NCBI GenBank assembly: GCA_023150555.1
Contig: JAKLKQ010000025.1
Span: 19,069 to 83,068 of the forward strand
Reading direction: 5' to 3'
Length of the DNA stretch: 64,000 bases
From: Planctomycetota bacterium
GTDB taxonomy: Bacteria > Planctomycetota > SZUA-567 > H5-PLA8
The position numbers and the translations under genes are program-made. Positions 7,025 through 43,500 of this stretch are shown here, in pieces (positions within the stretch are counted from its first letter, which is position 1; each line of letters begins with the position of its first letter). The notes under the pieces were generated by a model. It was given only the letters and a program-made list of their open reading frames with translations. It was not told the DNA's origin and did no database searches.

Positions 7025-7203
7025 GTGCCTGGGTTTCCGCCGACAAAAAGGGCTTTTGGGGCGAGCGTATTGGAATGGGCGGCTGCTTGCAATTAAACGC
7101 TCGAGAATTGTCCCCAAAGGACGGGATCGTCCAAACGGATCTGGACCCGGGGCCCGGGCATGGGTATGAGAATATTTGAACCGGGGAGCTCACCCGCTGC
7201 GCC

Positions 7204-15024: not shown

Positions 15025-18000
15025 CTATTTCTCGGTGCTCAGCAGCACGCCCAGCGCCGCCGGGGACGGATCGCCCTGCGGCGCGCCGCCGTGCCAGGCG
15101 GTGCGTTCGGGCAAGCCTTTGGCGGTGTGGCGCTGGCGCGCGAAGGCCGCGCGCAGCACGCGCCCGGCGGCCGGCGGGCCCTTCAGGCCCAGGTCGCGCC
15201 AGGGGACGGCGAGTTCCAGGACCCAGCCGGTCTCGGTGCGCGCGGTGCGGGCCAGGGCGTGCCCGTTCCACGCGACGTCGCCGTTGCGCGAGTCGCGAAG
15301 GTTGCCGAGGACGTCGAAGCGCAGGCGCAGCGTCGCGGCCGGCTGTTCGGCGCTGAAGAGCGTGACTTCAAACCAGTCGCCTTCGTCGATCTTCGCGTCG
15401 TCGCGTTTCATCGCGAGTTGCTTGCGCGCGCGCAGCGCGTCGAACTCGGGATCGCCCAGGTACGCGGCGAGCAGCAGGTTCTCGCCGTCGCGACGCACGG
15501 CCACGGCCGTCTGCGTCGAAGCCGCGGGATCGGTGCCGTCGTTGGCGCTGAGGTACGCGGAGACCTGCTGGTTCTTCCAGCCGGGGTCGTCGGTGCGGCC
15601 GTCGACGGTTACGGCGCCGGGGGCCGGGGGCACGGCGGCGACCGGAAGCACGAAGCGGAAGGCCTGCTCGTCGCCGGCGGCCTCGCTGAGCGCCAACTGC
15701 AGGACGCCGGCGGCCGCGGGCAGTTCGGCGCTGCGGGCCTGAAGTTTGACGACGAAGGGGAGGGGCTGCGGGCGCGGGCTGGGGTGGGCGCGCCGGTCGG
15801 GCGGCGCCATCTCGGCGATCTCAGCGCGCCAGCCCTTGCTGCACTTGGCGACGAGCATCGGGGGCGCCTGCAGGCCTTCGCCGGCGGGGCGCAGATGCAT
15901 GGGCCACTCGACGTTCAGTTCGCCGCGCTCGTTCACCTCCACGCGCAGGCCTTCGCCGCGCGGCTCGGGGCGCCACTGCTGCGTGACGCCGGCCATCGGC
16001 AGCAGGCCCGCGTACGGCGCGTTGTCCTTCAGCAGTTGGAACTCGCGGCGCAGCCCGCTGAGCAGGTCGGTGGCGACGCAGCGGTACAGCCCGGCGGGTT
16101 CGTTGAGGCCCAGGCTGAAGGTGCCTTCCCATCGCCCGGCCTCGGCGATGACGGCGCGGCTGTAGTGCGGCAGGTGGCGGCCTTGCGGGTCGAAGAACTC
16201 CAGGCGCAACACGTGGCGACCCAGTTCCTCGCCGTCGTCTCCGGTCTCGGCACCTTCCTTGTCCGCGTCGATCTCGAAGGCGAGCCGGAAGGCGCCCAGC
16301 GGGTCCAGGCGCCGCACTTTCGCCTCGAGGGCGCGCACGCGGTAATCCAGCGCGGCCAGCACCGCCGCGGCGTCGGGCGCCAGGCGCGCGCTGCATTCGG
16401 TGCCCAGGCCCAGGTACGTGCCGGTGCGCACGTCGTACCAGTGGCAGGTGTGGTCGTAGACGGCGCGCACGGCGGTGGATTCGGTTGCAAGCGCGGGGGC
16501 CAGCACCGCGGCCAGCGCCACAGGGCCGTCGCGCCAGAGTTTGCGCGCGGCGCCGCGCAGGGCGTGGCCGGAAGCGTCGCGGACGCTGAGCGCCGGTTCA
16601 CCCACGGCTTCCTCCAGAAGGTTGCCGACAAGAATGCGCAGGGCCTCGCCGCCGGTTGGCTTCCCGAATTTCGCGAGATACTCGCGCCGGCCGATGCCGG
16701 CCATGCGGAAGTCGGTCTCGGCCTTTGCGCTTAGTTCGGGGTAATCCTGCACCGCGAGGTTCAGATAGACGAAGCGCCCCACCCCCGCACTGTGCACGGC
16801 CAGCGCGTCGGCGCCGCCGGCGGTCTTGGCGTGGCTCCACGCGCCGGTGGCGCGCAGGCCGGGTTCGTTGACGCGCAGTTCGTCCGATTCAGGCCCCAGG
16901 TCGACGGGACGCGCGGGGTCGAACAGGCGCACGCGCGCGCTGGCGGCCTCGCCCATCCATGCGCCGGCGATCTCATGCGCCCATTGGTGCTCGCGGCGCA
17001 CGCCGAAGTCGCGGTCCAGGATTCCGATGTAGGGTTGTGTGGCCAGGCCGCGGTAGCGCCGGCCGTATTCGTCGTAGGTCCCGCACTGCGAGTCGGCTAG
17101 GACGACGCCTTTCAGTCGCGCATACGCCTGCAGCGCCTTGGCTTCCTTTGCGCCCAGGCTGAGGACCTTGGGCAAGATCAGCACCTTCACGTCCAGGCCG
17201 GAGCCCTTGGCGAGCAGCTCCTGCTCGTCCACGAAGCGCGCCTCGAGTCCCAGATCGGAAAGCAGCGCGCGCCAGGCTTCGATCGCGCGCAGGCCCGTCC
17301 CGTCCGCGGGGTTGGCCAGGTCGGCCCAGGTGCTGCCGCGCAGCGCGGCGTCGCGCAGCCAGTGCAGCGCGAGGCTGCGCGGCGAGTAGTAGATGCCGAT
17401 GCGCGGCTTCGGGGCCGGCGCCCCGTTGCGCAGCAGCGTCAGACCGTTGGCCAGCGCGTCGAGGTCCTCGATCAACGGGGCGGCGTGGCTCGGTCGCAGG
17501 CCGTCGGCGTCGGCGAAGAGCCCGTCGGCGTTGACCACCACCGTGCCGGCGTCGCCGCGCATCCAGCCGTCCCACAACTGGCGGCGCGCCTGGCTGCCCG
17601 AGACGTTTGTCAGGTTCACCGCGCGGATGCCGGAATGGAAGCTGGCGAAGAGTTCGCGGACAGGCCCGCGGTCCACGGGCACGTACCAGTCCAGCAGCGG
17701 CGCGACGCGCGCGGCGTCCCAGCCGCCCCAGGGCGAGGGCTCGCACGCGCCGGTCAGCCCGCACAGCGCGCCGGGATCGGCCGCGCGCACGGTATGTGTA
17801 AACTCGTTGAGCAGCCGCGCGAAGGCGAAGTCGAGGAAGGCGTGCCATTCCAGCCACGCCGCGCAGTTCTCGCGCCCGGGCGCGGCCAGCTCGCTGGGCT
17901 TGAGCGTGAACGACGCGTGGCCGTCGACCTCGGGGAGTTCCTCGTCTTCGTTGCCGCCGCGCAGGATCTCCATGCGCTCGGCGAAGCGCGGCTGCAGCGC

Positions 18001-19023
18001 GCCGAGCATCTCGTCGGTGGACGGTGGCCGGACCTCGCTCCAGTCCTTGAAGCCCGTGCGCCAGACCGCGTTCAGTGCCTGCAGGTCCAGGTAGCGCCGC
18101 TTCAGCCAGGCCTGGAAGAGTTCCAGCGTCTCGGCGGAGGGCAGCAGGTCCAGCGCGCGCGTAGTGCGGGTGAGCGAGAGTTCGTGGCCGACCGAGTACC
18201 CCAGCGGGCGATCGGCCGCCAGCGACCAGGTGCGGTCGTGCAGGTCTTTCAGCGCGCGGTCGAGCGCCGCCTGTTCAAACAGAGGCGGCACGCGCGTGAG
18301 GCCCTCGATCGCGCGCGCGGCGAACTGCGCGTGGAGCGTGTTCCATCGCCCGTCGTCGAAGGCGTGCAGCGGATGGCCTTGCTCGCCCAGCGCGGTCTGC
18401 AGCCGGTAGGTCCAGGCGTCGGCGGAATCGTTGACCGCGGGCGCCGTGGGGTCCAAGAAGTCGTCGATGCGCCCGTTGACCGGCAGGCGCGCGATCTGTG
18501 CCCTGGCCTCGTCGGACTCGAAGCGCTGGCTGCGCGGCAGCAGCACGGCGAAGCCGTCCCAGTTCCTGCGCTGGGGCACGACCGTGAAGCGGGCCTCGGC
18601 GGCGAAGCGCCAGGCCGGATCGTTCTTCTTCGTACGCGGCGCGGTGACCAGCACCAGGCGGTGCTCGATGCCGAAGCCCCCGCGCAGCGGGACTTCGAAA
18701 GAGACGGGCTCGTTCGAGGCCTCCTTCGAGGCCGGGTCGATCTCGACGTGGCTGATTACGCGTCCCAGGCCGTCGATGAAAAGGATGCGCAGCAGGTTTT
18801 CGGCCGGATGCCAGTCGCCGCGGAAACTCGCCTTCAGCACCGCGTTCTCGTCGAAGCGCGTGCCCGGAAGTTCCAGCGTTAGCGCGTTCGGCAGCGCGAC
18901 GGGTTGTGCGGGAGCATTCTCGGCCGCGCGCGCGCCCGCGCAGGCCGCGGCCAGACACAGCAGCAGGGCCGCCACGCGCGCCGCGGCGGCACGCAAGACG
19001 CTACCGTACCGGAGGACCCCCAT
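15025..19023 (-). CDS. large secreted glycoside-hydrolase-like protein (GH42M-like trimerisation/amidotransferase-like region and a C-terminal CBM9-like region)
   Basis: Start at MGVLRYGSVLRAAAARVAALLLCLAAACAGARA (signal peptide). About 1330 aa. The internal VKVLILPKV...YARLKGVVLADSQCGTYDEYGR segment resembles the beta-galactosidase middle domain. Specific activity is unknown. Confidence 0.5.
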   Translation of the reverse strand: MGVLRYGSVLRAAAARVAALLLCLAAACAGARAAENAPAQPVALPNALTLELPGTRFDENAVLKASFRGDWHPAENLLRILFIDGLGRVISHVEIDPASKEASNEPVSFEVPLRGGFGIEHRLVLVTAPRTKKNDPAWRFAAEARFTVVPQRRNWDGFAVLLPRSQRFESDEARAQIARLPVNGRIDDFLDPTAPAVNDSADAWTYRLQTALGEQGHPLHAFDDGRWNTLHAQFAARAIEGLTRVPPLFEQAALDRALKDLHDRTWSLAADRPLGYSVGHELSLTRTTRALDLLPSAETLELFQAWLKRRYLDLQALNAVWRTGFKDWSEVRPPSTDEMLGALQPRFAERMEILRGGNEDEELPEVDGHASFTLKPSELAAPGRENCAAWLEWHAFLDFAFARLLNEFTHTVRAADPGALCGLTGACEPSPWGGWDAARVAPLLDWYVPVDRGPVRELFASFHSGIRAVNLTNVSGSQARRQLWDGWMRGDAGTVVVNADGLFADADGLRPSHAAPLIEDLDALANGLTLLRNGAPAPKPRIGIYYSPRSLALHWLRDAALRGSTWADLANPADGTGLRAIEAWRALLSDLGLEARFVDEQELLAKGSGLDVKVLILPKVLSLGAKEAKALQAYARLKGVVLADSQCGTYDEYGRRYRGLATQPYIGILDRDFGVRREHQWAHEIAGAWMGEAASARVRLFDPARPVDLGPESDELRVNEPGLRATGAWSHAKTAGGADALAVHSAGVGRFVYLNLAVQDYPELSAKAETDFRMAGIGRREYLAKFGKPTGGEALRILVGNLLEEAVGEPALSVRDASGHALRGAARKLWRDGPVALAAVLAPALATESTAVRAVYDHTCHWYDVRTGTYLGLGTECSARLAPDAAAVLAALDYRVRALEAKVRRLDPLGAFRLAFEIDADKEGAETGDDGEELGRHVLRLEFFDPQGRHLPHYSRAVIAEAGRWEGTFSLGLNEPAGLYRCVATDLLSGLRREFQLLKDNAPYAGLLPMAGVTQQWRPEPRGEGLRVEVNERGELNVEWPMHLRPAGEGLQAPPMLVAKCSKGWRAEIAEMAPPDRRAHPSPRPQPLPFVVKLQARSAELPAAAGVLQLALSEAAGDEQAFRFVLPVAAVPPAPGAVTVDGRTDDPGWKNQQVSAYLSANDGTDPAASTQTAVAVRRDGENLLLAAYLGDPEFDALRARKQLAMKRDDAKIDEGDWFEVTLFSAEQPAATLRLRFDVLGNLRDSRNGDVAWNGHALARTARTETGWVLELAVPWRDLGLKGPPAAGRVLRAAFARQRHTAKGLPERTAWHGGAPQGDPSPAALGVLLSTEK

Positions 19024-19397
19024 CCCCCGGACGTATGGATGCCTCGAGACGTCCGCCGTCACGGAGCCTCCCTGGCAAATGCAAGATGGCACGTATCCGG
19101 AGTCTACGGGTTGGCCGTGCAATTTCCATGAAGGGTGAAGGGGCGCGGATAGAAAAATACCATTCCCCATCTTTGGATTTTGTTTGGTTCCGCATCGTGC
19201 GGTGTTGCCGAAGGGCTCCGTAGGGTCAACGACGGCACGGTCCATCCCCACACCCCCAGAGAATCGGCACGATGCGCCACGCGGCATCCTCCGATGCGGG
19301 ACCATCCCCGTATCCTTGTGCAACGGCCAGAGTTACATTACAATCGAGGCGCATATCGGGTCACCAAAGCTTCCCAAACGCAGGAGTCCAAGCCGCG

Positions 19398-30076: not shown

Positions 30077-30844
30077 ATGGAACAGTTCCTAGAAGTCGCC
30101 TTCAACCTGCCGACCGTGATCTACACGGTGCTGCTGATCTTCGTGCTGCTCTTCTGGGGCTCGGTGCTGGCCGCGGGCCTCGATCCACACATGTTCGACG
30201 CGCATGTCGAGGTGCCGGCGCATGTGGACGTACCGAGCGACGTGCACGTGGATGCCCATGTCGACGGTCACGTTGACGCGCATGGAGAGGTGCATGCCGA
30301 GAAGGACGTGGCGGTACACGGCGGCGGGCACTGGGTGATGGTCCTGTTGACGACGCTGAACATCGGAACGGTGCCGGTGACGGTGGTGCTGAGCTGTGCG
30401 GTCTTCGCGGCCTGGACCACGAGCATGGCTCTGAACCTTTTCGTCGCCGAAAATGTCGCAATCTACCTGCATCCGATCGTCTGGATCGCGGCGGCGCTGG
30501 CGAGCGCGGGGGTGACGGGGCTCATCGTCGCCGCACTGGCCACCCGTCCGCTGAGACCGCTCTTCAAGAACTACACGCAGACGGCGCAAGAGGACCTGAT
30601 CGACCAGATCTGCACGATCCGCACCAGCCACGTGGACGAGAAGTTCGGACAGGCGGAATACGAAACCGACGGCGCGCCGCTGATCCTCTCGGTCTGCTGC
30701 CGGCGCAAGAACAACGACCTGACCAAGGGCGTTAAAGCGGTGATCGTCGGCTACAACCGGAGAACCGACACGTACGAGGTAGCCAAGCTGGATCCCGAAA
30801 GCTCCAGGAAGAAGTCCGTAAAGAGGACGGCGAAGGCCGACTGA
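30077..30844 (+). CDS. NfeD/YqiJ-like inner-membrane protein with C-terminal OB-fold and a His/Asp-rich insert
   Basis: N-terminal TM helices, a HVDxHVDxHVD repeat, more TM helices, then a C-terminal soluble beta domain (KGVKAVIVGYNRRTDTYEV). RBS gggagga. Directly upstream of the flotillin gene, as in yqiJ-yqiK. Confidence 0.7.
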   Translation: MEQFLEVAFNLPTVIYTVLLIFVLLFWGSVLAAGLDPHMFDAHVEVPAHVDVPSDVHVDAHVDGHVDAHGEVHAEKDVAVHGGGHWVMVLLTTLNIGTVPVTVVLSCAVFAAWTTSMALNLFVAENVAIYLHPIVWIAAALASAGVTGLIVAALATRPLRPLFKNYTQTAQEDLIDQICTIRTSHVDEKFGQAEYETDGAPLILSVCCRRKNNDLTKGVKAVIVGYNRRTDTYEVAKLDPESSRKKSVKRTAKAD

Positions 30845-30913: not shown

Positions 30914-33088
30914 ATGGACCTGATCATGGCGAATTTCCCGTTGGTGCTCGGAGATTGGAGCAATTGGCTCTCCGGCGGTTATTTACTCATACTCGTCTGC
31001 ACCGTTGTGGCTGGAATTTTGGGCTTAGGGTTCCTGAAGTGGCTGCTGGGCTTCTACCGCAAGGTGGAACAGGGCAAGGCTCTGATCATCAACAAGACCC
31101 GCGGCAATATCGACGTCTCTTTCACCGGCGGGCTGGTGCTGCCGGTGCTGCACCTCGCCGAGGTGATGGACCTCTCGGTGAAGAAGATCGAGATCGACCG
31201 GCGCGGCAAGGAAGGCCTGATCTGCAAGGACAACATCCGCGCGGACATCACGGTCGCCTTCTTCGTGCGCGTCAATCCCACCCAGGACGATGTGAAAAAG
31301 GTGGCGCAGAGCATCGGGTGTGCGCGCGCCAGTGCCCAGGAGACCCTGGAGCAACTCTTCAACGCCAAATTCTCCGAAGCCCTGAAGACCGTTGGCAAGC
31401 TGATGAACTTCATCGAGTTGTACGAGAATCGCGAGAACTTCCGCGAACGCATCATTGAGGTCATCGGCAAGGACCTGAACGGCTACTTCCTGGAAGACTG
31501 CGCCATCGACTACCTCGAACAGACGCCCATCGAGAGCCTGGACAAGGAGAACATCCTCGACGCCGAAGGCATCAAGAAGATCACGATGCTGACCGTAGAG
31601 GAGCACATCCAGGCGAACAAGCACCGCCGCCGCGAAGACAAGGAAGTCACCGAGGAGAACGTACGAACCCGCGAGACGATCCTGGAGCTGGAACGCGCGC
31701 AGGCGCAAGCCGAGCTGGAGCAGAAGAAAAATATTGAGGTCATCCGTGCCGAGCAGGAAGCGGAGTCTGCGATCAAGGCCGCCGAACAGCGGCGCCAGTC
31801 CGAGATGGCGCGCATCGAGGCCGAGAAGGAGATCTCCAAGTCCAACGAGGTCCGAGAGCGTGACGTCGCCGTCGCGGCCAAGGACAAGGAGCGCGCCATC
31901 GCCGTCGAGAACGAGAATGTCGAGCGCGCGCGCCAGAAGGCCGCCATCGACCGCGAGCGCGAAGTCACGCTGCTGGCCATCGAGAAGGAGAAGGCCGTCG
32001 AAGTCGAAAAGAAGAACATCCAGGACGTGATCCGCCAGCGCGTCGCGGTAGAAAAGACCGTCGCGGTGGAGGAGGAAAACATCAAGGACGTGCGCGCCAT
32101 CGCTACCGCCGAACGAGGCAAGAAGGTCGCCATCACCGCAGCCGAACAGCACGCGCAGGAAGCCCTGGTGAAGGACATCAAGGCCGCCGAGGCACAGGAG
32201 ATCGCCGCCAAGCACCTGGCTGCGCAAGAGATCACCATGGCGCAGGCCGAACTGGCCAAGAGCGAGAAGCTGGCGCTGGCCAAGATGAAGATGGCCGAAG
32301 GTGTCGCGGCCGAGGCCGCCGCCGAAGGCCTGGCGAAGGTTCGGGTGAAGGAAGCCGACGCGGACGCCACCGAAAAGATGGGCAAGGCCGAGGCCGTCGC
32401 CATTCGCGAAAAGGGCAAGGCCTCCGCTGACGCGAACAAGGAAGGCCGCCTGGCAGAGGCGACTGGCATTGAAGCCGAAGGCTTGGCGAAGGCCAAGGCG
32501 CGAACCGCCGACGCAGCCGCCAGCAAGGAATACTACCTGGCAGAGGCCGAAGGCATCCGCGAGAAGGCTCTCGCCGAGGCCGAAGGCATCGACAAGAAGG
32601 CCGACGCCATGAAGCAGCTCGACGAACGCACCATCTCGCACGAGGAGTTCCGCATCGGACTGGACGTTCAGAAGCAGATCGACAACTGGCGCATTCACGC
32701 CGGCCAGGCCGTTGGCTTGGAACAGGCCAAGGTCCTGGGCGAGGCCCTGAAGAACGCCAAGTTCGAGATCGTCGGCGGCGACGGCGAGTTCTTCGACCGC
32801 TTCGTCAGCGCCGTCGGCGCCGGCAAGAGCCTGGATGCCTTCGTCGACCGCAGCGAAGTCGTCCAGAAGCTCGGCAAGGAGTACCTCAACGGCGACGGGA
32901 ACTTCATGGAGGACCTCAAGGAGATCCTCGTGAATGCCAACCTCGGCACCGAGGATCTGAAGAATATCTCCATCACGGCGCTACTGACCAAGCTGATGGC
33001 CGGTGCCACCGACGACGCAACCAAGTCGAAACTGGCGCGGCTGCTGGCCGTCGCCGAGGACGGCGGCAAGAAGAAGGGCCGCCGCTGA
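30914..33088 (+). CDS. flotillin-like SPFH/band-7 protein (YqiK/FloT-type) with long EA-rich coiled coil
   Basis: ALIINKTRGNIDVSFTGGLVLPVLHLAEVMDLSVKKIEIDRRGKEGLICKDNIRADITVAFFVRVNP... is near-identical in pattern to E. coli YqiK. N-terminal TM helix. About 350 aa of E/A/K/R coiled coil. Confidence 0.85.
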   Translation: MDLIMANFPLVLGDWSNWLSGGYLLILVCTVVAGILGLGFLKWLLGFYRKVEQGKALIINKTRGNIDVSFTGGLVLPVLHLAEVMDLSVKKIEIDRRGKEGLICKDNIRADITVAFFVRVNPTQDDVKKVAQSIGCARASAQETLEQLFNAKFSEALKTVGKLMNFIELYENRENFRERIIEVIGKDLNGYFLEDCAIDYLEQTPIESLDKENILDAEGIKKITMLTVEEHIQANKHRRREDKEVTEENVRTRETILELERAQAQAELEQKKNIEVIRAEQEAESAIKAAEQRRQSEMARIEAEKEISKSNEVRERDVAVAAKDKERAIAVENENVERARQKAAIDREREVTLLAIEKEKAVEVEKKNIQDVIRQRVAVEKTVAVEEENIKDVRAIATAERGKKVAITAAEQHAQEALVKDIKAAEAQEIAAKHLAAQEITMAQAELAKSEKLALAKMKMAEGVAAEAAAEGLAKVRVKEADADATEKMGKAEAVAIREKGKASADANKEGRLAEATGIEAEGLAKAKARTADAAASKEYYLAEAEGIREKALAEAEGIDKKADAMKQLDERTISHEEFRIGLDVQKQIDNWRIHAGQAVGLEQAKVLGEALKNAKFEIVGGDGEFFDRFVSAVGAGKSLDAFVDRSEVVQKLGKEYLNGDGNFMEDLKEILVNANLGTEDLKNISITALLTKLMAGATDDATKSKLARLLAVAEDGGKKKGRR

Positions 33089-33194
33089 GCGAAGTGCCGG
33101 TCATGCTGGGCTGCGCCCGTGTGTCACGAAGGACATGCGGGCGCGGCGCTTAGCGGCCTGCGCACCCCGGTTCCGAAAGCGATGACCGAGTCCC

Positions 33195-36100
33195 ATGGCT
33201 GAAACGTCCGCACCCGCGAAGCCCGAGGCCGCCCAGGAACGCCAGGCGGCGGAGGCCCAGGCCGCCCAGGCCGGCGGCGCCTACGAGGTCCTGCGCGACC
33301 GTCTGGGCGAACAGTGCCTGGAGTTGCGTAACCGCGTCGACAAACTGAACGCGCGGCGCCGCGAGATCTTCGGCGGGCAGGAAACGAAGCTCATTGGCAG
33401 CCCGCGCATCCAGACCGAACACAACTGCAAGCCCCACGACATCATCCACCTCGGCAACAAGTTGATCGTCGGGTTCGACGTCTACCTGGGCATGAAGAAG
33501 GAGACGGAAGTCTCCGATATCCTGGGCGTGTACGAGTTCGACGGCCAGCAGTTCTACCCTCTGGGCATCGACTTCCTGTCCGATCCGAAGTTCCAGTTCG
33601 ATTTCAAGGACCTCTACAAGTACTACAAGGAGGCCCGGCTTCTTCAGCTGCGCAACACCGGCACGCACCTGAAGTTCGTCTTCCAAACCGGCCGCGCGCA
33701 CTCGGACGTGAAGGTCCTGCGCTTCCTGATCAAGCAGGACAAGTCGGTCCAGTACGCCGACAACCGCGGCGAGAACGTCTATCCGGAGCAGTTCGACTTC
33801 AAGTGGACGCGCACCACGCGCGACGACCACGTCGAGGGCCGCTACCCGCACGTCTCGATCGCGGACGAGCTTTTCGTCGAATGCGTCGGCGGCGACCTGA
33901 CCGTGAAGGTCGAGGACAACACCGACTCCGGCGAAGGCATCTATTCCGAACCGGTGGCCGAGATCAACCAGTCGCTGAACGACGCTGAGATCTACTACGT
34001 CCTGCTCGACAACCTGGTCCTGTTGAAGATCAAGCCCTTCGGCGAGGAGCAGTACCGCTACCTTGTGTACAGCAAACTCACGCAGAAGGTCCGGCGGGTC
34101 GACGCCCTGCGCCTGGCCTGCGTGCAACTGCCCGAGGGGCACGGCATTATTTTCCCCGGCGGCTACTTTCTGCAGACCGGCGAGTGCAAGATGTTCTCCG
34201 ACGACGTGGAGAACATGGAGTTCTTCAAGTCCATCAAGTCCGCCAACGGCGAGGACGTGCTGTACCTCTTCCACGACCGCCGAACCGGGCGCTACATCCT
34301 GCTGCAGTACAACCTGATCAACAAGACAGTCGATACGCCCATCGTGTGCCACGGCTATTCGCTGTATTCCGACGGCAAGCTGGTGATTCTGCGCGAGGCC
34401 GGGCAGGAGCCGGCCAAGAGCCACCCTGTGCAGATCTGGCAGACGGCCTTCATAGGCGAGGACTACCAGGCGCCGATGAAGGACGAAAGCTTCATCGGCA
34501 AGATCGGCAACAAGGATCTGGTCACGGGCATCTCCGACGCGCTGACCATCGTGAAACTCGCGCGCGAGACCGCGCCCACGGTCGCCGCCTACGCGGACCT
34601 GGTGAAGCAGACTGACGCCGTGCTGAATCGCTACCACTGGCTGGGCAGCGGCGACTGCTTCAATCTCGAGGAAGTGCTCAAGCAGATCCGCGAGACCGGC
34701 AACACCATCATCGACGAGTTCGAGAAGGTCCTGCAGATCCGCAAGGCCACTGGCGTGCGCATCGACGCCTTCGAGAGGGAAGTCGACGCGCACTTCCGCG
34801 AGTTCTTGCCCGAATCGCTGCAGGACGTCGACCAGCATGCCCAGGCGCTGGCGCGCATCCGCCACCTGCGCGGCACGGCGATCTCGCTGCGCGAGCTGCG
34901 GTACTCGGACCTGGAGCGCCTTCAAGGCGTGGAGAAGCGCCTGGTCGAGGCCTTCGACGTGCTGTCCGAGCGCACCGTCGGCTTCCTGCGCAGCCCCGAC
35001 GCCCTGAAGCCCTACGCCGCACGCCTGGACGAGACGCTTGCTCGCATCGAGGCGCTGAAGAAGGTCACCGACGCCGACGCCCTGCGCGAGGAGCTGGACG
35101 GACTGGGCGAGGGCCTGGACCTGCTCACCGAGATCGTCAACAATCTCAAGATCGACGACGCCACCGCCCGCACCGAGATCATCGAGGCCCTGGGCGAGAT
35201 CTACGCGCACCTCAACCGCGCCAAGGCGCTGCTCGCCAGCCGCCGCAAGGATCTCCTGGGCAGGGAACTGGTCGCCGAGTTCGGCGCGCAGTTCAAGCTG
35301 CTGGGGCAGGGCGTTGCCAACTACCTGGGCCTGGCCGATACGCCCGAGAAGTGCGACGACCACCTGACCAAGCTGCTGGTGCAGGTCGAGGAGTTGGAGG
35401 CGAAGTTCTCCGACTTCCCCGAGTACGTCGAGAAGCTGACGGCCAAGCGCGAGGAGGTCTACGACGCGTTCAGCGGCCGCAAGCAGCAGCTGCTCGACGA
35501 GCGCCAGCGCAAGGCTGCCGCCCTGGCCGAGGCCGCCGACCGCATCCTGAAGGGCGTCGCGCGCCGCGCCGCCGCCTTCAAGAGCGACGACGAGTTGAAC
35601 GGCTACTTCGCCGGTGATGCGATGGTGATGAAGGTCCGCGACATTATCGAGAAGCTGCGCGAGTTGGGCGACAGCGTCAAGGCCGACGATCTTTTCTCGC
35701 GCCTGAAGAGCGCGCGCCAGGATGCGGGCCGAAGCCTCCGCGACAAGCTCGAGATCTTCGACGAAGGCGACATCATCAAGCTCGGAAAGCGCCGCTTCAA
35801 CGTCAACACCCAGCCGCTGGACCTGACCCTGGTGCGCCGCGACGAGGCCATGTGCTTCCACCTGACTGGCACCGACTACTACCAGCCGGTCACGGACGCC
35901 GAGTTCCTGAAGACCAGGCCGTTCTGGACGCAGGACCTGCCCAGCGAGAACGAGCACGTCTACCGCGCCGAGTACCTCGCGTGGAAGATGCTCGACGATG
36001 CGGAGTCCGGCCGCAGCGGGCTGGACATCGCGAAGCTCGAGGCCGCCGCCGCCGGCAAGAAGCTCGACGCGTTGCTGGACCTCGTGCGCGAGTACGCTTC

Positions 36101-38726
36101 GGGCCTGTACGACGAAGGCTACGACCGCGGCGTGCACGACCACGACGCCGCGCTGATCCTGCGCGCGGCGCTTTCGCTGCGCGCCGAGTGCGGCCTGCTG
36201 CGCTTCGATCCGCGCAACCGCGCGCTGGCGTGTCTCTTCTGGAGCCACTTCGCGGACGAAGGCCGGCGCGTGCTGATCGAACGCAAGGCGCGCAGCCTGG
36301 GTTCGATGAAGCTCGTCTTCCTCAACGGCGGCGGCTCGCGGGTCTTCCAGCACCAGCTTGCCATGTGGATGCAGACTTTCTGCGAGACGCACGCGCTTCC
36401 GTGCGAGGGCGCGGACTTCGTCACGGCCGCGCGGTACCTCTTCCTGGAGCTCTCGGACGCTAAGTCCACGGGCTTCGCGACGTCGCAGGAGGCCGCCGCG
36501 CTGCTCGACGCCTTCCTGACGCATCTGGACGGCACGCCCGCGCGCAAGAGCCTGGAGAGCGACCTCAAGGCGCTGGAAGGCGATCTGCACAATGCCCTCG
36601 ACCTGGCCCACACATGGCTCTCGTCGTTCTACGACGCCTCCGAGCGCAAGGCCGCAGGCCGGTACCTCGATGAGGCCATCGCGCTGCTGCTGACCAGGCA
36701 GAAGCTCCCGCGAAGTACGGTCGTCGCGAAGACCGGCGCCGAAGTGAGCGGCTTGCTGGGCCAGCACCCGATACTGGAAAGCGGGAAGCTCAATCTGCAA
36801 CTCGACGAGTTCCTGCAGCGCGTGGGCGCGTTCGCAGCGAACACGGCGCCTGCGTATCGCACCTACCAGGAGCAGCGCAAGCTCCTGCTGGAGCGCGAGC
36901 GCGAACGACTGCGCCTGGACGAGTTCCGCCCGCGGACGCTCAGCAGCTTTGTGCGCAACCGCCTGATCAACGACGTGTACCTGCCGGTGCTGGGCGACAA
37001 CCTGGCCAAACAGATGGGCGAGGCCGGCGAGCAGAAACGCACCGACTTGATGGGCCTGCTGCTGCTGATCTCGCCGCCGGGCTATGGCAAGACGACGCTG
37101 ATGGAGTATCTCGCCAACCGCCTGGGCCTGATCTTCATGAAGATCAACGGCCCGGCGCTGGGCCACGAGGTCCTTTCGCTGGATCCGAACGAGGCGCCCA
37201 ACGCGACGGCGAAGGAGGAGGTCCAGAAGCTGAACCTCGCCTTCGAGATGGGCAACAACGTGATGATCTACATCGACGACATCCAGCACACCCATCCCGA
37301 GTTCCTGCAGAAGTTCATCTCGCTGTGCGACGCGCAGCGCAAGGTGGAAGGCGTCTATAACGGCCGCGCGCGCACCTACGACCTGCGCGGCAAGAAGGTT
37401 TGCGTCGTGATGGCCGGCAACCCGTACACCGAAAGCGGCGCGCGCTTCCAAATCCCGGACATGCTCGCCAACCGCGCAGAAACCTACAACTTGGGCGACA
37501 TCATCGGCGGGCGCCGCGACCTCTTTGAGCTCAGCTACCTCGAGAATTCGATGACATCCAACTCGGTGCTGAACCCCCTGGCCACCCGCGAGCAGAAGGA
37601 CTTCTACAGGCTCGTCGAAATGGCCGACGGCGGCGAGGTCCCCGAAAGCGAACTCTCGCACGACTACTCCGGCGCGGAATTGAAGGAGATCCTCGATACC
37701 ATCAAGCGCCTGCGCGTGGTCCAGCGCGTGGTGCTGCGCGTGAACGAGGAGTACATCCGCTCGGCGTCGCAAAAGGACGAGTTCCGCACCGAGCCGCCGT
37801 TCAAACTCCAGGGCAGCTACCGCGACATGAACAAGATGGCATCCAAGGTTCTGCCCGTGATGAGCGAGCAGGAACTGGAAGGCGTGATTCGCGACCACTA
37901 CCGCGGCGAGTCGCAGACGCTAACCACCGGCGCCGAGCACAACCTGCTGAAGCTCGCCGAGATCCGCGGGCATCTGGCCGGTACGGAACTGGAGCGCTGG
38001 GACGAGATCAAGCGCACCTTCCGCCAGCACCAGTCGATGATGGGCGCTGACAAGGACGACCAGGCCGCGATGGTGGTTTCGCAACTGGCGTCCTTCAACA
38101 CCAACCTCGACCGCATCAAGGACGTAATCGCAAAGGCCGCGCAGAAGAACAACGGCGACCTGGGCCCGCAGTTGGCCGAGGCGCTTGCGCGTTTCGGCGA
38201 GGGCATGCAGGAGGCCGGCGACCAGCGCGCGGCGCAGATGGGCGAGCAGGTCGCACGCGCGTTCGAGAAGGTCGCGCAGGCGCTGGCCAAGCGCGACCGC
38301 GGCGAAGGCGACGAGGCGCAGGTGGCTGCCGCGCTGGACAAGGTCACCCAGGCGCTGGGCGCGCAGAACGCCGCACAGCCGAAGGTCGAGATCGTCAATA
38401 CGCTGCCGAAGTATTACGGCAACCTCTACAAGCACCACATCGACGTCATCGAAGCGGTGCTGATCCCGCTGATCAAATCGATGGACCACCAGATGGCGGA
38501 AGTCGACAACCTGCACGTGACGCTGGAAGGCGTGCTGGGCCGCCTCAACGAACTTGCCTCCCGCCACACGCAGCTCCAGGGCAAGGTCCACCACGAACAC
38601 GGCGAGGAAGAGGACGACGAACACGAGCCCGACGTCCCGCCCGCGCCCAAGCCGGCACCTGCCACCCGCAAGTCCGCCCCCAAGAACGCGCCCAAGCTGC
38701 GCGATCCCTTTAAGCGCGAGAAGTAG
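33195..38726 (+). CDS. giant 1843-aa protein with a single MoxR/AAA_5-like AAA+ ATPase module near the C-terminus (otherwise unassignable)
   Basis: Walker A ISPPGYGKTTLMEYLANRLG, Walker B VMIYIDDIQH, sensor-1 VVMAGNP, Arg finger region ANRAETYNLGD (about aa 1240-1420). N-terminal about 470 aa is beta-rich with no motif I recognise. The middle is about 700 aa helical/coiled-coil. Acidic His/Glu-rich C-terminal tail. Confidence 0.75.
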   Translation: MAETSAPAKPEAAQERQAAEAQAAQAGGAYEVLRDRLGEQCLELRNRVDKLNARRREIFGGQETKLIGSPRIQTEHNCKPHDIIHLGNKLIVGFDVYLGMKKETEVSDILGVYEFDGQQFYPLGIDFLSDPKFQFDFKDLYKYYKEARLLQLRNTGTHLKFVFQTGRAHSDVKVLRFLIKQDKSVQYADNRGENVYPEQFDFKWTRTTRDDHVEGRYPHVSIADELFVECVGGDLTVKVEDNTDSGEGIYSEPVAEINQSLNDAEIYYVLLDNLVLLKIKPFGEEQYRYLVYSKLTQKVRRVDALRLACVQLPEGHGIIFPGGYFLQTGECKMFSDDVENMEFFKSIKSANGEDVLYLFHDRRTGRYILLQYNLINKTVDTPIVCHGYSLYSDGKLVILREAGQEPAKSHPVQIWQTAFIGEDYQAPMKDESFIGKIGNKDLVTGISDALTIVKLARETAPTVAAYADLVKQTDAVLNRYHWLGSGDCFNLEEVLKQIRETGNTIIDEFEKVLQIRKATGVRIDAFEREVDAHFREFLPESLQDVDQHAQALARIRHLRGTAISLRELRYSDLERLQGVEKRLVEAFDVLSERTVGFLRSPDALKPYAARLDETLARIEALKKVTDADALREELDGLGEGLDLLTEIVNNLKIDDATARTEIIEALGEIYAHLNRAKALLASRRKDLLGRELVAEFGAQFKLLGQGVANYLGLADTPEKCDDHLTKLLVQVEELEAKFSDFPEYVEKLTAKREEVYDAFSGRKQQLLDERQRKAAALAEAADRILKGVARRAAAFKSDDELNGYFAGDAMVMKVRDIIEKLRELGDSVKADDLFSRLKSARQDAGRSLRDKLEIFDEGDIIKLGKRRFNVNTQPLDLTLVRRDEAMCFHLTGTDYYQPVTDAEFLKTRPFWTQDLPSENEHVYRAEYLAWKMLDDAESGRSGLDIAKLEAAAAGKKLDALLDLVREYASGLYDEGYDRGVHDHDAALILRAALSLRAECGLLRFDPRNRALACLFWSHFADEGRRVLIERKARSLGSMKLVFLNGGGSRVFQHQLAMWMQTFCETHALPCEGADFVTAARYLFLELSDAKSTGFATSQEAAALLDAFLTHLDGTPARKSLESDLKALEGDLHNALDLAHTWLSSFYDASERKAAGRYLDEAIALLLTRQKLPRSTVVAKTGAEVSGLLGQHPILESGKLNLQLDEFLQRVGAFAANTAPAYRTYQEQRKLLLERERERLRLDEFRPRTLSSFVRNRLINDVYLPVLGDNLAKQMGEAGEQKRTDLMGLLLLISPPGYGKTTLMEYLANRLGLIFMKINGPALGHEVLSLDPNEAPNATAKEEVQKLNLAFEMGNNVMIYIDDIQHTHPEFLQKFISLCDAQRKVEGVYNGRARTYDLRGKKVCVVMAGNPYTESGARFQIPDMLANRAETYNLGDIIGGRRDLFELSYLENSMTSNSVLNPLATREQKDFYRLVEMADGGEVPESELSHDYSGAELKEILDTIKRLRVVQRVVLRVNEEYIRSASQKDEFRTEPPFKLQGSYRDMNKMASKVLPVMSEQELEGVIRDHYRGESQTLTTGAEHNLLKLAEIRGHLAGTELERWDEIKRTFRQHQSMMGADKDDQAAMVVSQLASFNTNLDRIKDVIAKAAQKNNGDLGPQLAEALARFGEGMQEAGDQRAAQMGEQVARAFEKVAQALAKRDRGEGDEAQVAAALDKVTQALGAQNAAQPKVEIVNTLPKYYGNLYKHHIDVIEAVLIPLIKSMDHQMAEVDNLHVTLEGVLGRLNELASRHTQLQGKVHHEHGEEEDDEHEPDVPPAPKPAPATRKSAPKNAPKLRDPFKREK

Positions 38727-38941
38727 CTGCCGCCTGTAGGCGCCTTGTACGCCCGCTGCGCAGGGGGCCGCCAGAAGGCCTTTTGCACGGAAGTTCCCAT
38801 CCTTTCAACTCGTTTTAAATGAATAGGTTACGGATTCGGTCAGGCAGGCCTGGCCGCTCGGCGCCACGGCATCGGGTTTGCATTCCAATTCCTTGCCTGA
38901 GGGGATGGAAGCAGGGACTTATTGGAACGGGAGTGCGCGCC

Positions 38942-39358
38942 ATGTTCTTTCGCAAGGTTCCTCCTCTGCCGCCCGCGGCACCCGGCCCGGTGGTGATGCT
39001 GGTTGAGGACGATCTGGGCGTCTGCCTGGCGCTGACCACGTGGCTTCGGCAGCAGCGGCTGCGGGTGGTGCATGCGGCTTCCCGTGTCGAGGCCCTGGAA
39101 CTGCTGGGCGACATGAACGCCATCCAGGAGCGCTTCGACGGGCTGGTCACCGATTACCGTTTGCCCGATGGCACCGGCTGCGACGTGGTGCGGGCCTTCC
39201 GCAAGGCGCATCCTGAACTGCCTGCCGCCTTGATTACGGCCTACGCCGAGCCCGCGATCTTCGGTTGGACCGAGCGCAACAGCGTGGCCCTGTTCGAGAA
39301 ACCCCTCAACCTGAAGCGAATCCAGGACTGGCTGGGCGCGTTTGCCGTGAGCGCATGA
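38942..39358 (+). CDS. single-domain response regulator (CheY-like receiver)
   Basis: VVMLVEDDLGV...LVTDYRLPDGTG...LITAY: phospho-acceptor Asp in the DYRLPD context, conserved T and K (EKPLNLKR). No output domain. Confidence 0.7.
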   Translation: MFFRKVPPLPPAAPGPVVMLVEDDLGVCLALTTWLRQQRLRVVHAASRVEALELLGDMNAIQERFDGLVTDYRLPDGTGCDVVRAFRKAHPELPAALITAYAEPAIFGWTERNSVALFEKPLNLKRIQDWLGAFAVSA

Positions 39359-40338: not shown

Positions 40339-43300
40339 ATGCCATCCGCCCAAGGGGCCGCGCAGCCCCGGATCGTCGGGGGCTTCGAGATCCTCTCCAA
40401 GATCGGCAGCGGGGCCATGGGCGCCGTCTTCAAGGCGCGCCAAGTCTCGATGGACCGGGTGGTGGCGCTGAAGCTGCTGCCGCCCAAGATCGCGAACAAG
40501 GATCCGGTCTTCGTCGATCGTTTCATCCGCGAAGCGCGCGCTTCGGCGAAGCTCAACCATCCCAACATCGTCCAGGGCATCGAGGTGGGCAAATGCCCGG
40601 AGACCTCGCTCTACTACTTTGCCATGGAGTACGTGGACGGCCCGACGGTCAACGGGCTTCTTAAGAAGGAAGGAGCCTTCGACGAACGGCGCGCGCTGGA
40701 AATTGTGCTTGGCGTGGCCAAGGCGCTGGTCTGCGCCGAGCGCAAGGGCATCGTCCATCGCGACATCAAGCCAGACAACATCCTGATCGACTCGCGCGGC
40801 GACCCGAAACTCGCCGATCTGGGTCTGGCCAAGCGCGTGTCCGACAATGCCGGCGGCGTGAGCATGTCCCTGCCTTCGCTGGGACCCGCCGCCAACGCGA
40901 ACCTGACGCAGGCCGGTTCGACGGTCGGGACGCCGCATTACATGTCGCCGGAACAGGCCGAGGGGAAGGCCGAAGAAGTCGACATCCGCACCGACCTGTA
41001 CGCCCTGGGCGCTACCCTGTACCACATGGTCACCGGCCGCACGCCCTACAGCGGCAACTCCGCCGTTGAAATCCTGGTCCAGCATCTCACCGCGCCCGTG
41101 CCCGATCCTTCGGCCGCGAACCCGGACCTCAGCCGAACGACCTGCGAGATCATCGAACGCCTGATGCAGAAGGCGCCGGCCGACCGTTACCAGAATGCCG
41201 ATATGCTGGTTCGCGAACTGGAGGCGGCGCTGGCTTCGCCCCTGCGGTCCGGCAGCGCCACCACGCGCTCGAGAAAGCCCGTGGGCGTCAAGACCACCGG
41301 GCCGCGCCAGCCTCTGGGCTTCGACACCACGCGCAAGCGCCCCGGCGTCGGCGGCACCACCGGGCGGCTTGCGCCGGTGGGCGAACGCCGCGCGCCGCGT
41401 GCGGGGCGCGCGGGTGCTTCCGGCGGCGGCAACCCGGCGCTGATGTACGGCGCCATCGGCGGCGGCGTGCTCCTGCTGCTTCTGCTGTTGGCGATGGGCG
41501 GCGGGTCGAGCACGCCTGCGCCGTCCAGCGCCCGGCGATCCGACAGCGGGACGCCGCCGGCTGGCTCCGTCGAACAGAAGACCGGCGCCATCCTGCCCGC
41601 GGTAGGCAAGCCGGTGAATTCAGCCAAGACCGCGCCCGTGGCGGCGGTCCAGGATCCCAAGGGCGCCGCGGGTCCCGCAGCGGCGCCGGCCTTCGAGACC
41701 TTGCAGACGGTGGCGCAGGCGCGCTGGCGCGGAGCCGTGAAAGCGCTGGACCTCTCGGAATCCGAACGCGTCCTCGGTTTGGTGTCCGACGAACTGAAAC
41801 TCGATCCGGCCATGCGCTCGCGGCTGGCGGGAGTGCTGGAAGACGAACTGCTCCAGCGGGCCAAAGCCCTGGGGGGCGAGATCGGACAACTCGTGCAGGA
41901 CGGGAAGCTTGACCAGGCCGCAGGCGTGCTGGGTGCCGCCGACGCCAGCGGAACGCTTTCCGGGCCGGGCAGCTGCGAAGCGCGGAAGGTCGTTTCGGCG
42001 CTGACTGCGTTTGTGGACGCGGCCCGGCAGCAGGCGCTGCCCAAGGACCCGGCCGCCTTCCACGCGTTGCTCGACAAGGTCGCCGCGCGGCTGGGCGAGC
42101 AGGACCGTGACGGCGCGGCTCGCGACTTGGCGTCCGGCATGGCGCAGCCCGAACTGAAGCCGTGGGAGGAAGCGCTGAGGCTCCAGAAGACGGCGCTGGG
42201 ATGGCTGGGCGAACTGGACGCGGCCATCCTTGAGGGCGCTAAGAAGCTGGCCGATGGGCGCGACTACGAGCTGGCTTTTGAAGATCCCAAGAAATCCGCG
42301 TATGCATTGGGTAAAGCTCCCGCAGGGAAATTGCCCATGACGCTGCGCGAAGTCACCGCCGACAAGATCGCGTTAGCCAGTGGCGGCGCCGAGTTCAGCG
42401 TTCGCGTCCTGGAACTTTCGCGCACCACGCGCCGCGCTCTGACCGCACTCTCCGCCGACGGCGACGCCAAGGCTCAGGCCGCGCTGGCTGTGAAGGGGGC
42501 GTACGAGGATCTCCTTCGCTGGCCAACGTACGCCGGCGCCGACAAGGCCGAGTTGGCGGACGTGGAGCGCGTCCTGCAGGAAGCCCGCGCCGACGGTGCG
42601 GCGGAGGAACTCTTCCTGCCGCTGGAGCCCTGGCTGGCACGCGTCAAGGCTGCGGCCGCGCCGCCCCCTCCGGCGGTGGTTCAGGCGCCCGCGAAGCCGA
42701 CGACCAAGACACTGGACCTCGGCAACGGCGTGACGATGGAACTGGTGCTGGTACCGGCGGGGTCCTTTCAGATGGGTACCAGGGCCGGACAATTCCTGCC
42801 CGATCCCATGCGCGATGAAGTGGGTTGGGCATTCAACGAGATGCCCCGGCATGAAGTCGTGATCTCCAAGCCGTTCTTTATCGGCAAATACGAGGTCACC
42901 CAGGCGCAGGTGCGCGTATTCTTCCCGAACCTGCCCAGCCGTGCGTTCACGGGCGACGACATGCCCATGCACAGCCTCAACTGGAATATGGCTCGGGGCT
43001 TTTGCGAGGTCCTGTCGCGGAGAACGGGTGTGGCCGCACGGCTGCCCACCGAGGCTGAATGGGAGTACGCCTGCCGCGCCGGGCAGGATGGGCCCTTCGT
43101 CCGTTGGGACGACCCGCGGGTGGACGGCGACCGTGGCACGTGGGAGCGCCTCAACCGGCAGGCCATGGACGCGGTGGCCTGGTACGACGAGAACAGCAAC
43201 CAGGAACTTCACGCGGTGGGCCAGAAGCAGCCTAACGCCTGGGGCCTGTACGACATGCTCGGCAACGTCGCCGAGTTCTGTTCGGACTTCTACGGGTCCT

Positions 43301-43500
43301 ACTCGGGCGAAAAGGCGACCGATCCGCAGGGGCCGGGCCAAGGCGGCGAGCGCATCGTTCGCGGCGGCGGCCCCAAGGCCCCCTTTTGGCGTTGCCGCCC
43401 CGAAAAGCGGCAAAAGGCAACGCAAGCCGAACGCAGCGTGGGCCTGGGCCTGCGCATCGTGATTCCTGCCGACGACGACGGGCAGTTCGCAAGGCCTTGA
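40339..43500 (+). CDS. Ser/Thr protein kinase fused to a C-terminal formylglycine-generating-enzyme (FGE/SUMF1-type) domain
   Basis: Kinase: GSGAMGAVFKA, HRDIKPDNIL, DLGLAK, GTPHYMSPE. A long Pro/Ala-rich linker with a TM segment (GGGVLLLLLLLAMGGG). FGE domain: RHEVVISKPFFIGKYEVTQAQ, RLPTEAEWEYACRAG, GLYDMLGNVAEFCSD, RIVRGGG. Confidence 0.85.
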   Translation: MPSAQGAAQPRIVGGFEILSKIGSGAMGAVFKARQVSMDRVVALKLLPPKIANKDPVFVDRFIREARASAKLNHPNIVQGIEVGKCPETSLYYFAMEYVDGPTVNGLLKKEGAFDERRALEIVLGVAKALVCAERKGIVHRDIKPDNILIDSRGDPKLADLGLAKRVSDNAGGVSMSLPSLGPAANANLTQAGSTVGTPHYMSPEQAEGKAEEVDIRTDLYALGATLYHMVTGRTPYSGNSAVEILVQHLTAPVPDPSAANPDLSRTTCEIIERLMQKAPADRYQNADMLVRELEAALASPLRSGSATTRSRKPVGVKTTGPRQPLGFDTTRKRPGVGGTTGRLAPVGERRAPRAGRAGASGGGNPALMYGAIGGGVLLLLLLLAMGGGSSTPAPSSARRSDSGTPPAGSVEQKTGAILPAVGKPVNSAKTAPVAAVQDPKGAAGPAAAPAFETLQTVAQARWRGAVKALDLSESERVLGLVSDELKLDPAMRSRLAGVLEDELLQRAKALGGEIGQLVQDGKLDQAAGVLGAADASGTLSGPGSCEARKVVSALTAFVDAARQQALPKDPAAFHALLDKVAARLGEQDRDGAARDLASGMAQPELKPWEEALRLQKTALGWLGELDAAILEGAKKLADGRDYELAFEDPKKSAYALGKAPAGKLPMTLREVTADKIALASGGAEFSVRVLELSRTTRRALTALSADGDAKAQAALAVKGAYEDLLRWPTYAGADKAELADVERVLQEARADGAAEELFLPLEPWLARVKAAAAPPPPAVVQAPAKPTTKTLDLGNGVTMELVLVPAGSFQMGTRAGQFLPDPMRDEVGWAFNEMPRHEVVISKPFFIGKYEVTQAQVRVFFPNLPSRAFTGDDMPMHSLNWNMARGFCEVLSRRTGVAARLPTEAEWEYACRAGQDGPFVRWDDPRVDGDRGTWERLNRQAMDAVAWYDENSNQELHAVGQKQPNAWGLYDMLGNVAEFCSDFYGSYSGEKATDPQGPGQGGERIVRGGGPKAPFWRCRPEKRQKATQAERSVGLGLRIVIPADDDGQFARP

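Follow-up and report, generated by a model that had tools for sequence, protein, structure and literature searches.

The DNA analysed here, hereafter the window, is a 64,000-nucleotide stretch of a Planctomycetota bacterium (assembly GCA_023150555.1, contig JAKLKQ010000025.1, forward-strand positions 19,069 to 83,068), which encodes a giant ATPase of 1843 residues in an open reading frame (ORF) with an ATG start. This protein belongs to a widespread family, termed DUF3686-AAA+ in the following, of which it is a typical representative, with both the collinear domain architecture and the operon context of that family. Its gene is the third of an operon, downstream of the genes for a YqiJ-like membrane protein and a flotillin-like protein. 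Below, we establish to which family it belongs, how its domains are arranged and which structures they resemble, and that its gene is strictly linked to these two operon genes. We read the protein as an ATP-driven remodeller of flotillin assemblies or of their clients, a reading to which we assign a probability of about 0.5.

An earlier annotation made from the letters of the DNA, referred to here as the original prediction, had listed the ORF, its length and the Walker A, Walker B and sensor motifs, all of which were found in place. When read in the translation and re-derived from the coordinates, Walker A (SPPGYGKTT) spans residues 1293–1301, Walker B (VMIYIDD) residues 1356–1362 and sensor-1 (CVVMAGNP) residues 1403–1410. 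The overall layout, with a beta-rich head, a long helical region, a single AAA+ core and a low-complexity tail, was likewise correctly recognised. A deposited protein from a Planctomycetota metagenome-assembled genome has the same length, is 100% identical and carries the name 'DNA repair ATPase [Planctomycetota]'. The gene is overlapped by an antisense ORF of 1582 codons (33150–37898, reverse strand), which is probably a composition artefact because the G+C content is approximately 65% across the window. Comparable long antisense ORFs occur at related GC-rich loci, where they mislead simple ORF calling.

A widespread family encoded in a flotillin operon

The Pfam profile DUF3686 (PF12458), described there as 'ATPase involved in DNA repair', was matched end to end (profile positions 1–448 of 448) by residues 43–481, with an E-value of 4.4e-178, far outside chance expectation, and 592.8 bits against a cut-off of 25. 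Further matches were obtained for DUF7902 on residues 602–685 (E 1.7e-27, 95.9 bits) and for the generic AAA profile on residues 1289–1409 (E 1.5e-7), with a weaker one for AAA_5. The NCBIfam scan of the protein returned nothing past P-loop noise. Among 5.8 billion proteins searched, 3631 were scored as homologues, the best 120 of which comprise 1633–2044 residues and share 47–64% identity over 86–100% of the query. Searched exhaustively with HMMER, the N-terminal 490 residues yielded 699 clusters at 50% identity, 506 of them at E≤1e-10. Complete members of these clusters have approximately 1550–2040 residues, so the head domain occurs essentially always within the giant architecture. The motifs SPPGYGKTT, DDIQH, AGNP and LANR are invariant across the family.

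When one genome per species was scanned, relatives were found in at least 583 species, from the phyla Myxococcota, Planctomycetota, Bacteroidota, Actinomycetota, Verrucomicrobiota, Lentisphaerota and Acidobacteriota, as well as from Gammaproteobacteria such as Pseudomonas, Xenorhabdus and Stenotrophomonas. The ATPase is also present in 13 plasmid or secondary-replicon records, including pQBR103 of Pseudomonas fluorescens SBW25. The original prediction had regarded the N-terminal beta domain as belonging to no known family and the architecture as an oddity; neither view stands, as the former is DUF3686 over its full profile and the latter is the standard of more than 3600 homologues. The placement in a family does not by itself overturn the original prediction, since the family is catalogued but has no defined function.

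Linkage within the operon was counted by tblastn over 81 related loci. A flotillin homologue was found upstream of the ATPase gene in 69 of the 70 loci that had enough upstream DNA, and it was adjacent and on the same strand in 66 of the 70, which bears out the flotillin link at which the original prediction had hinted. In 56 of 65 loci, a YqiJ-like gene could be recognised ahead of the flotillin gene, and no further neighbour was common to more than 7 of the 81. In Nannocystis, the same three genes are found in the same order. The intergenic gaps measure 69 and 106 nucleotides in the window, and promoter and terminator scans of the operon gave nothing above shuffled expectation.

The first gene encodes a multi-pass membrane protein with a soluble C-terminal domain, whose assignment to the YqiJ/YuaF type (short, NfeD-like) follows PMC11237479. 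It shares 30% identity (E 4e-27) with the product of the Nannocystis gene in the same position and gives a weak, collinear match to Escherichia coli YqiJ (E 0.029); no Pfam profile matched. The loop after its first membrane segment (residues 41–85, nucleotides 30197–30331) holds a His/Asp-rich repeat, HVEVPAHVDVPSDVHVDAHVDGHVDAHGEVH, and the Nannocystis homologue carries another repeat, GKVDGAVDAMA..., in the same loop. To judge from these two proteins, the loop appears to be variable and repetitive, and may bind metal in the present case.

The second gene encodes a flotillin-like protein, in which an N-terminal membrane anchor and an SPFH/Band-7 domain are followed by a long coiled coil rich in Glu and Ala and by a C-terminal region that is conserved. 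It matches the Pfam Band_7 profile with 29.1 bits (cut-off 23.6; E 1.2e-6) and is 48% identical to its Nannocystis neighbour over 706 residues. In BLASTP, identity to E. coli YqiK is 30% and is confined to residues 1–445; the protein is approximately 170 residues longer than YqiK, and its last ~280 residues have no counterpart in the latter. The last ~150 residues (~570–724, nucleotides 32621–33088; for example, FEIVGGDGEFFDRFVSAVG) are conserved in the Nannocystis partner and, as a lead only, provide a possible docking site for the head of the ATPase.

Minor neighbours, confirmed by Pfam and found mostly in gammaproteobacterial loci, encode PspA/IM30, DUF2170 (YjfI), a rhomboid protease and a PLD-like protein, and the accessory genes around the operon in these bacteria are all membrane-related; a rhomboid or PLD-like gene is a frequent addition to the DUF2170 and PspA/IM30 genes. 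In pQBR103 (locus L082), the operon directly follows genes annotated as PspA/IM30, rhomboid, DUF2491, DUF350, DUF1190 and glutathionylspermidine synthase family members. No PspA, YjfI, PLD or rhomboid homologue was found in the 64-kb window, and the operon is present here in its short three-gene form. Its flanks contain housekeeping genes, namely for an orotidine monophosphate decarboxylase-like (pyrF-like) protein, SecDF, TrkH, a Na/H exchanger and an alcohol dehydrogenase, and the surroundings are neither a defence island nor a mobile element.

The same flotillin/YqiJ operon has been described in silico by comparative genomics (Ravi et al., mSystems 2024; PMC11237479), where a PLD hydrolase was reported to be sometimes present, the operon to be sometimes joined to a CesT/Tir-PspA pair and abbreviated forms to be widespread. 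The supplement of that study lists a 'Betapropeller+Coiled-coil+AAA-ATPase' protein in Dokdonia, and a role in sub-membrane dynamics was proposed. The ATPase of that operon belongs to the same family and has a collinear architecture and the same operon partners as the protein studied here. Nothing essential differs between the two, apart from the absence of the CesT/Tir-PspA pair and the addition of a lineage-specific tail in the present case. The family is thus already catalogued and its operon already described in silico, and the protein of the window is an ordinary representative rather than part of a new system. The spectrin-like rod, the middle domain and the Asp-Asp Walker B motif detailed below appear to be undescribed in the sources searched.

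Predicted structure and domain architecture

No solved structure of any relative emerged when the PDB was searched by sequence, whether the query was the protein alone or a family profile of 31 sequences; these searches returned only Walker A similarity to p97 and RuvB, together with one low-complexity match to a designed coiled coil. Two AlphaFold2 models, which together span the whole chain, were examined; both were computed from 42 diverse homologues. The mean predicted local distance difference test (pLDDT) score was 85.5 for residues 1–860 and 81.5 for residues 850–1843, in which the conserved parts exceed 90.

After a long N-terminal helix, the chain enters a head of approximately 27 modelled strands, with pLDDT values of ~90, which upholds the beta-rich N-terminus of the original prediction and lies within the DUF3686 match. 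In Foldseek, the head matched exclusively beta-propellers among PDB entries, namely the DCAF1 WDR domain (E 7.5e-6), PON1, prolyl oligopeptidase and LRRK2 WD40, with TM-scores of at most 0.42 and high root-mean-square deviations. The model thus suggests a divergent, propeller-like domain, as the original prediction had proposed and in agreement with the 'beta-propeller repeats' of the literature. Many polar residues of the head are invariant.

The helical spacer of some 700 residues in the original prediction is real as a long helical region, but it consists of two parts. The first is a rod of ~425 residues, modelled as tandem three-helix bundles that resemble spectrin and plakin repeats in fold and probably in rod-like behaviour; identity to these repeats is ~10%, the Pfam spectrin profile did not match the rod, and the resemblance is not evidence of homology. 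Among 31 homologues from several phyla, no indels were found over residues 41–1640, where three 40-residue blocks have gap fractions of 0.02–0.05. This argues that the rod has a fixed length for structural reasons, as opposed to being a flexible spacer, and, at the level of the alignment, such regularity speaks for a rigid, length-constrained machine.

The second part is a separate middle domain of ~380 residues, confidently modelled with pLDDT values mostly above 90, in which a small beta unit precedes ~240 helical residues. It contains an invariant motif, E974-G-Y-x-R-G-x-H-D-x-D984 (nucleotides 36114–36146), and no Pfam profile matched it even at E≤5. Two interpretations of this region were dropped. 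An HD-phosphohydrolase reading of H981-D982 found no HD match in Pfam and only a single invariant histidine in the stretch, and a second, degenerate AAA+ module is incompatible with residues 924–1167, which are all-alpha in the model.

Downstream of the AAA+ module, identity to homologues falls to ~0.2 and indels appear in a variable linker, which is followed by a C-terminal helix whose hydrophobic pattern, LxPLV...L..L, is conserved family-wide. The chain ends in the acidic His/Glu tail noted in the original prediction (HHEHGEEEDDEHEPD, then a Pro/Lys stretch; residues 1799–1843). This tail is present as described, but it is lineage-specific: the 40 homologues inspected end in quite different low-complexity sequences.

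Class of the AAA+ module

A single AAA+ core had been predicted, and this is what was found, since the Pfam AAA profile matches once and the modelled alpha/beta core surrounds that match. Conservation within the protein is highest here, with identities of 0.7–0.9. Among solved structures, the MoxR ATPases CbbQ and NorQ come nearest to the module in fold, and the model places a beta-hairpin ahead of sensor-1, a further feature in line with MoxR members. At the sequence level, the MoxR profile AAA_3 reached 11.8 bits against a cut-off of 27, and AAA_5 barely passed its cut-off of 22 with 23.7–26.9 bits, with the generic AAA model scoring higher. When the family profile was aligned by hhalign with single E. 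coli sequences, probabilities of 94.6 for RuvB (45 columns), 80.7 for FtsH and 5.7 for RavA were obtained; these alignments extended over only 23–45 columns near the P-loop and are no guide to the AAA+ clade. The stretch NPYTESGARFQIPDMLANRA presumably resembles the MoxR pattern. We read the module as MoxR-like in fold but probably outside the MoxR family, so that the MoxR/AAA_5-like core of the original prediction holds for the fold and is less clear for the sequence.

Compared with the MoxR class, the differences are considerable. CbbQ, NorQ and RavA comprise approximately 270–500 residues, against 1843 here. Proteins of that class normally have a VWA/MIDAS partner, whereas none was seen linked here, and the AAA_3 profile of the class is unmatched. 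With respect to this class and its relatives midasin and dynein, Walker A of the present protein looks closer to that of RuvB and classical AAA proteins, and its Walker B ends in Asp-Asp.

A working model and its alternatives

The gene of the ATPase almost always lies just after a flotillin-type gene, and the protein therefore probably acts on the flotillin scaffold; the oligomeric state, the direction of action and the physiological role that follow are those we infer. Flotillin would be held by its N-terminal segment, with its SPFH and coiled-coil parts assembling on the cytoplasmic face of the membrane. Lys/Arg residues, read from the sequence, follow this membrane segment, which predicts a cytoplasmic orientation of the scaffold; the ATPase has no predicted membrane segment and would reside in the same compartment. 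Like AAA+ proteins in general, the ATPase would oligomerise by way of its AAA+ module, here of MoxR type, and each subunit would present its propeller-like head at the tip of a rigid, spectrin-like rod of fixed length. Several heads could then work on the assembled flotillin, or on proteins inside the assembly, at the expense of ATP. Binding and hydrolysis of ATP would cause the scaffold to be assembled, remodelled or dismantled, in membrane maintenance or in the response to membrane stress.

A solved precedent for the pairing of an SPFH-family scaffold with an AAA+ ATPase at the inner membrane is the HflK/C cage, which encloses the AAA protease FtsH (PMC11348225). The two systems differ in that FtsH is a membrane-anchored classical AAA protease within a periplasmic-side cage, whereas the present ATPase lacks a membrane segment and a protease domain and belongs to another AAA+ clade, and its flotillin is predicted to face the cytoplasm.

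Several points weigh against an ATP-driven remodeller of flotillin. Walker B carries an invariant Asp-Asp followed by IQH, where the usual AAA+ motif is Asp-Glu, and the loop between strand 2 and helix 2, GPALGHEVLSLDPNEAPN, lacks an aromatic pore-loop residue. Together, these two features argue against a fast threading unfoldase and, as far as motifs can tell, make both fast hydrolysis and substrate threading doubtful. MoxR ATPases normally work with a VWA partner; none linked to the ATPase was seen, although not all clusters were scanned for VWA. Physical contact between the ATPase and flotillin is putative, and no experimental work on members of the ATPase family was found in the literature. 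Finally, the operon begins with two genes of the type found in E. coli YqiJ–YqiK and Bacillus subtilis YuaF–FloT, from which the third, ATPase gene is absent, and of the studied flotillin operons, yqiJK of E. coli and the two-gene operon SO1376/SO1377 of Shewanella lack it. As many flotillin/YqiJ operons lack the ATPase gene, the ATPase is no general requirement for flotillin function.

Among the alternatives, it is unlikely, though worth considering, that the protein is a MoxR-style maturation chaperone whose propeller head replaces the VWA adaptor, and which loads or remodels a specific membrane complex with flotillin as a platform. The nearest folds, CbbQ and NorQ, mature Rubisco and nitric oxide reductase, respectively; the invariant polar residues of the propeller face and the EGYxRGxHDxD motif of the middle domain suggest a specific ligand or client; and the missing aromatic pore loop would be in keeping with such a function. 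Against this, no candidate client gene is conserved beside the operon, and the flotillin and YqiJ-like genes are its sole universal partners.

The protein could also be a structural skeleton or tether that performs little work, in which the AAA+ module would be a nucleotide-controlled oligomerisation hub, with arms and heads that cross-link flotillin or tie it elsewhere. We give this a low probability. The spectrin-like rod of strictly conserved length fits it, and the invariant Asp-Asp of Walker B suggests slow, switch-like hydrolysis. However, none of Walker A, sensor-1, the Arg finger and the candidate sensor-2 varies, and conservation along the chain peaks in the AAA+ core, which fits better with a working ATPase.

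An anti-phage or conflict system, in which the giant ATPase would sense infection and act through its membrane partners, for example by abortive infection, is distinctly improbable. Its distribution across phyla is patchy, the 45–50% identity between distant phyla suggests horizontal transfer, the operon is found on some megaplasmids and a PLD-family gene is sometimes linked. Conversely, the best match in PADLOC-DB 2.0 reached 16.8 bits in the P-loop region, and matches were confined to the P-loop/AAA core at E-values of ~1e-3 (mad8, IetA, TRIP13), with none for the flotillin partner. In addition, the neighbourhood in the window is of the housekeeping type (SecDF, TrkH, pyrF-like, alcohol dehydrogenase), the accessory genes are membrane-stress genes, and the very high, indel-free conservation is unlike that of fast-evolving defence proteins.

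That the protein is a true DNA repair ATPase, as stated in the Pfam description and the NCBI product name, is scarcely credible: apart from the label, it is favoured by the weak P-loop similarity to RuvB, but this similarity stops at the Walker A stretch, Pfam and NCBIfam scans revealed neither a DNA-binding nor a nuclease domain, the gene is not linked to repair genes, its conserved neighbours all encode membrane proteins, and the label is unsupported by any paper found. In the literature searched, no paper contains 'DUF3686', or 'DNA repair ATPase' together with flotillin, and among the papers listed for PspA, SPFH or flotillin terms, none contains 'DNA repair ATPase' or pQBR103. The old COG label for SbcC is 'ATPase involved in DNA repair', a label often drawn by coiled-coil-rich proteins, and the name of the present family may stem from it. 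An SMC/SbcC/RecN-type protein was rejected on inspection, as a single AAA+ module carries both Walker motifs, at a distance of 60 residues, and no SMC or ABC match was obtained in Pfam or NCBIfam.

Returning to the remodelling of flotillin, a more specific version is that the family constitutes the dedicated motor of the flotillin cycle. A MoxR-type ring would extend propeller-tipped arms that grip the cytoplasmic part of flotillin, perhaps its extended C-terminus, and would use ATP to build, reshape or strip flotillin under membrane stress. In this detailed form, the proposal is tentative.

Feature coordinates and neighbouring genes

The coordinates of the operon, of the ATPase domains and of the motifs are compiled in Table 1, together with the related loci at which accessory genes flank the operon.

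Table 1. Position of the operon genes and of the ATPase domains and motifs in the window, and loci with accessory genes.
Feature	Nucleotides	Strand	Residues	Remarks
YqiJ/YuaF-type (short NfeD-like) multi-pass membrane protein	30077..30844	+	255 aa	First operon gene
Flotillin-like protein	30914..33088	+	724 aa	Second operon gene
DUF3686-AAA+ giant ATPase	33195..38726	+	1843 aa	Third operon gene
N-terminal long helix	33222..33371	+	10-59	AlphaFold2 helices 10-26 and 29-59; pLDDT ~90 from residue 30
Beta-propeller-like head	33387..34442	+	65-416	Inside DUF3686 (43-481); ~27 modelled strands
Helical rod	34491..35759	+	433-855	Tandem spectrin-like three-helix bundles, ~425 residues
DUF7902	34998-35249	+	602-685	Within the rod
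Unannotated middle domain	35772..36914	+	860-1240	Small beta unit, then ~240 helical residues
AAA+ alpha/beta core	36957..37544	+	1255-1450	
Walker A	37071-37097	+		SPPGYGKTT
Walker B	37260-37289	+		VMIYIDD, then IQH
Pre-sensor-1 beta-hairpin	37341-37382	+	1383-1396	From the model
Sensor-1	37401-37424	+		AGNP
Likely Arg finger	37452-37478	+		LANRA
AAA+ lid and conserved C-terminal helical region	37545..38114	+	1451-1640	Modelled helices, pLDDT 85-95
Candidate sensor-2	37806-37832	+		LQGSYR; Q1539, G1540, S1541, Y1542 and R1543 invariant
Variable helical linker	38115..38411	+	1641-1739	pLDDT 47-70
C-terminal helix	38412..38588	+	1740-1798	One long modelled helix, pLDDT 55-70
Lineage-specific tail	38589..38726	+	1799-1843	Including stop codon; His/Glu/Asp-rich, then Pro/Lys-rich; pLDDT <40
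Accessory genes upstream of the operon				Loci L035, L038, L039, L051, L058, L068, L071, L075
Accessory genes downstream of the operon				Loci L034, L038, L039, L050, L057, L069

Immediately downstream of the ATPase gene, positions 38819–39358 of the forward strand encode a receiver domain of the response-regulator type that stands alone (Pfam E 1.9e-11). It begins at residue 59 of the ORF, so that the true start may be later, for example at Met 42. This gene is probably unrelated to the operon, as a receiver-domain gene was found beside the ATPase in none of the 81 related loci.

Four further ORFs of the window were recorded. On the forward strand, positions 8957–13399 encode a 1480-residue fusion of a fatty-acyl reductase (NAD_binding_4, Sterile), an AMP-binding enzyme, a carrier-protein domain and an acyltransferase, an unusual single-chain architecture for lipid synthesis, and positions 40339–43500 encode a Ser/Thr protein kinase of 1053 residues with a long, low-complexity, membrane-spanning middle and a C-terminal domain of the FGE-sulfatase type. 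On the reverse strand, positions 4196–7117 encode a 973-residue fusion of a Na+/H+ exchanger with TrkA-N and PTS EIIA-2, and an ORF of 1432 codons at positions 15025–19323 had no Pfam match at E≤1e-5. Several long forward-strand ORFs overlap the latter, and either strand may be coding.

Significance for flotillin biology

The name 'DNA repair ATPase', which Pfam and most of the NCBI-named entries seen give to the family, is without support in the evidence examined, and ~380 well-conserved residues (860–1240) of the protein lie outside any domain model. The function of bacterial flotillins and the control of their assembly are unsettled, and an ATPase that shares an operon with one flotillin subtype almost without exception, in hundreds of species, provides a testable handle on both. 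Seemingly tractable carriers are Pseudomonas fluorescens SBW25 with pQBR103, Proteus mirabilis, Corallococcus and Labilithrix. If the family were indeed the motor of the flotillin cycle, no energy-dependent regulator would have been known before it for SPFH scaffolds of the flotillin type, as distinct from HflK/C.

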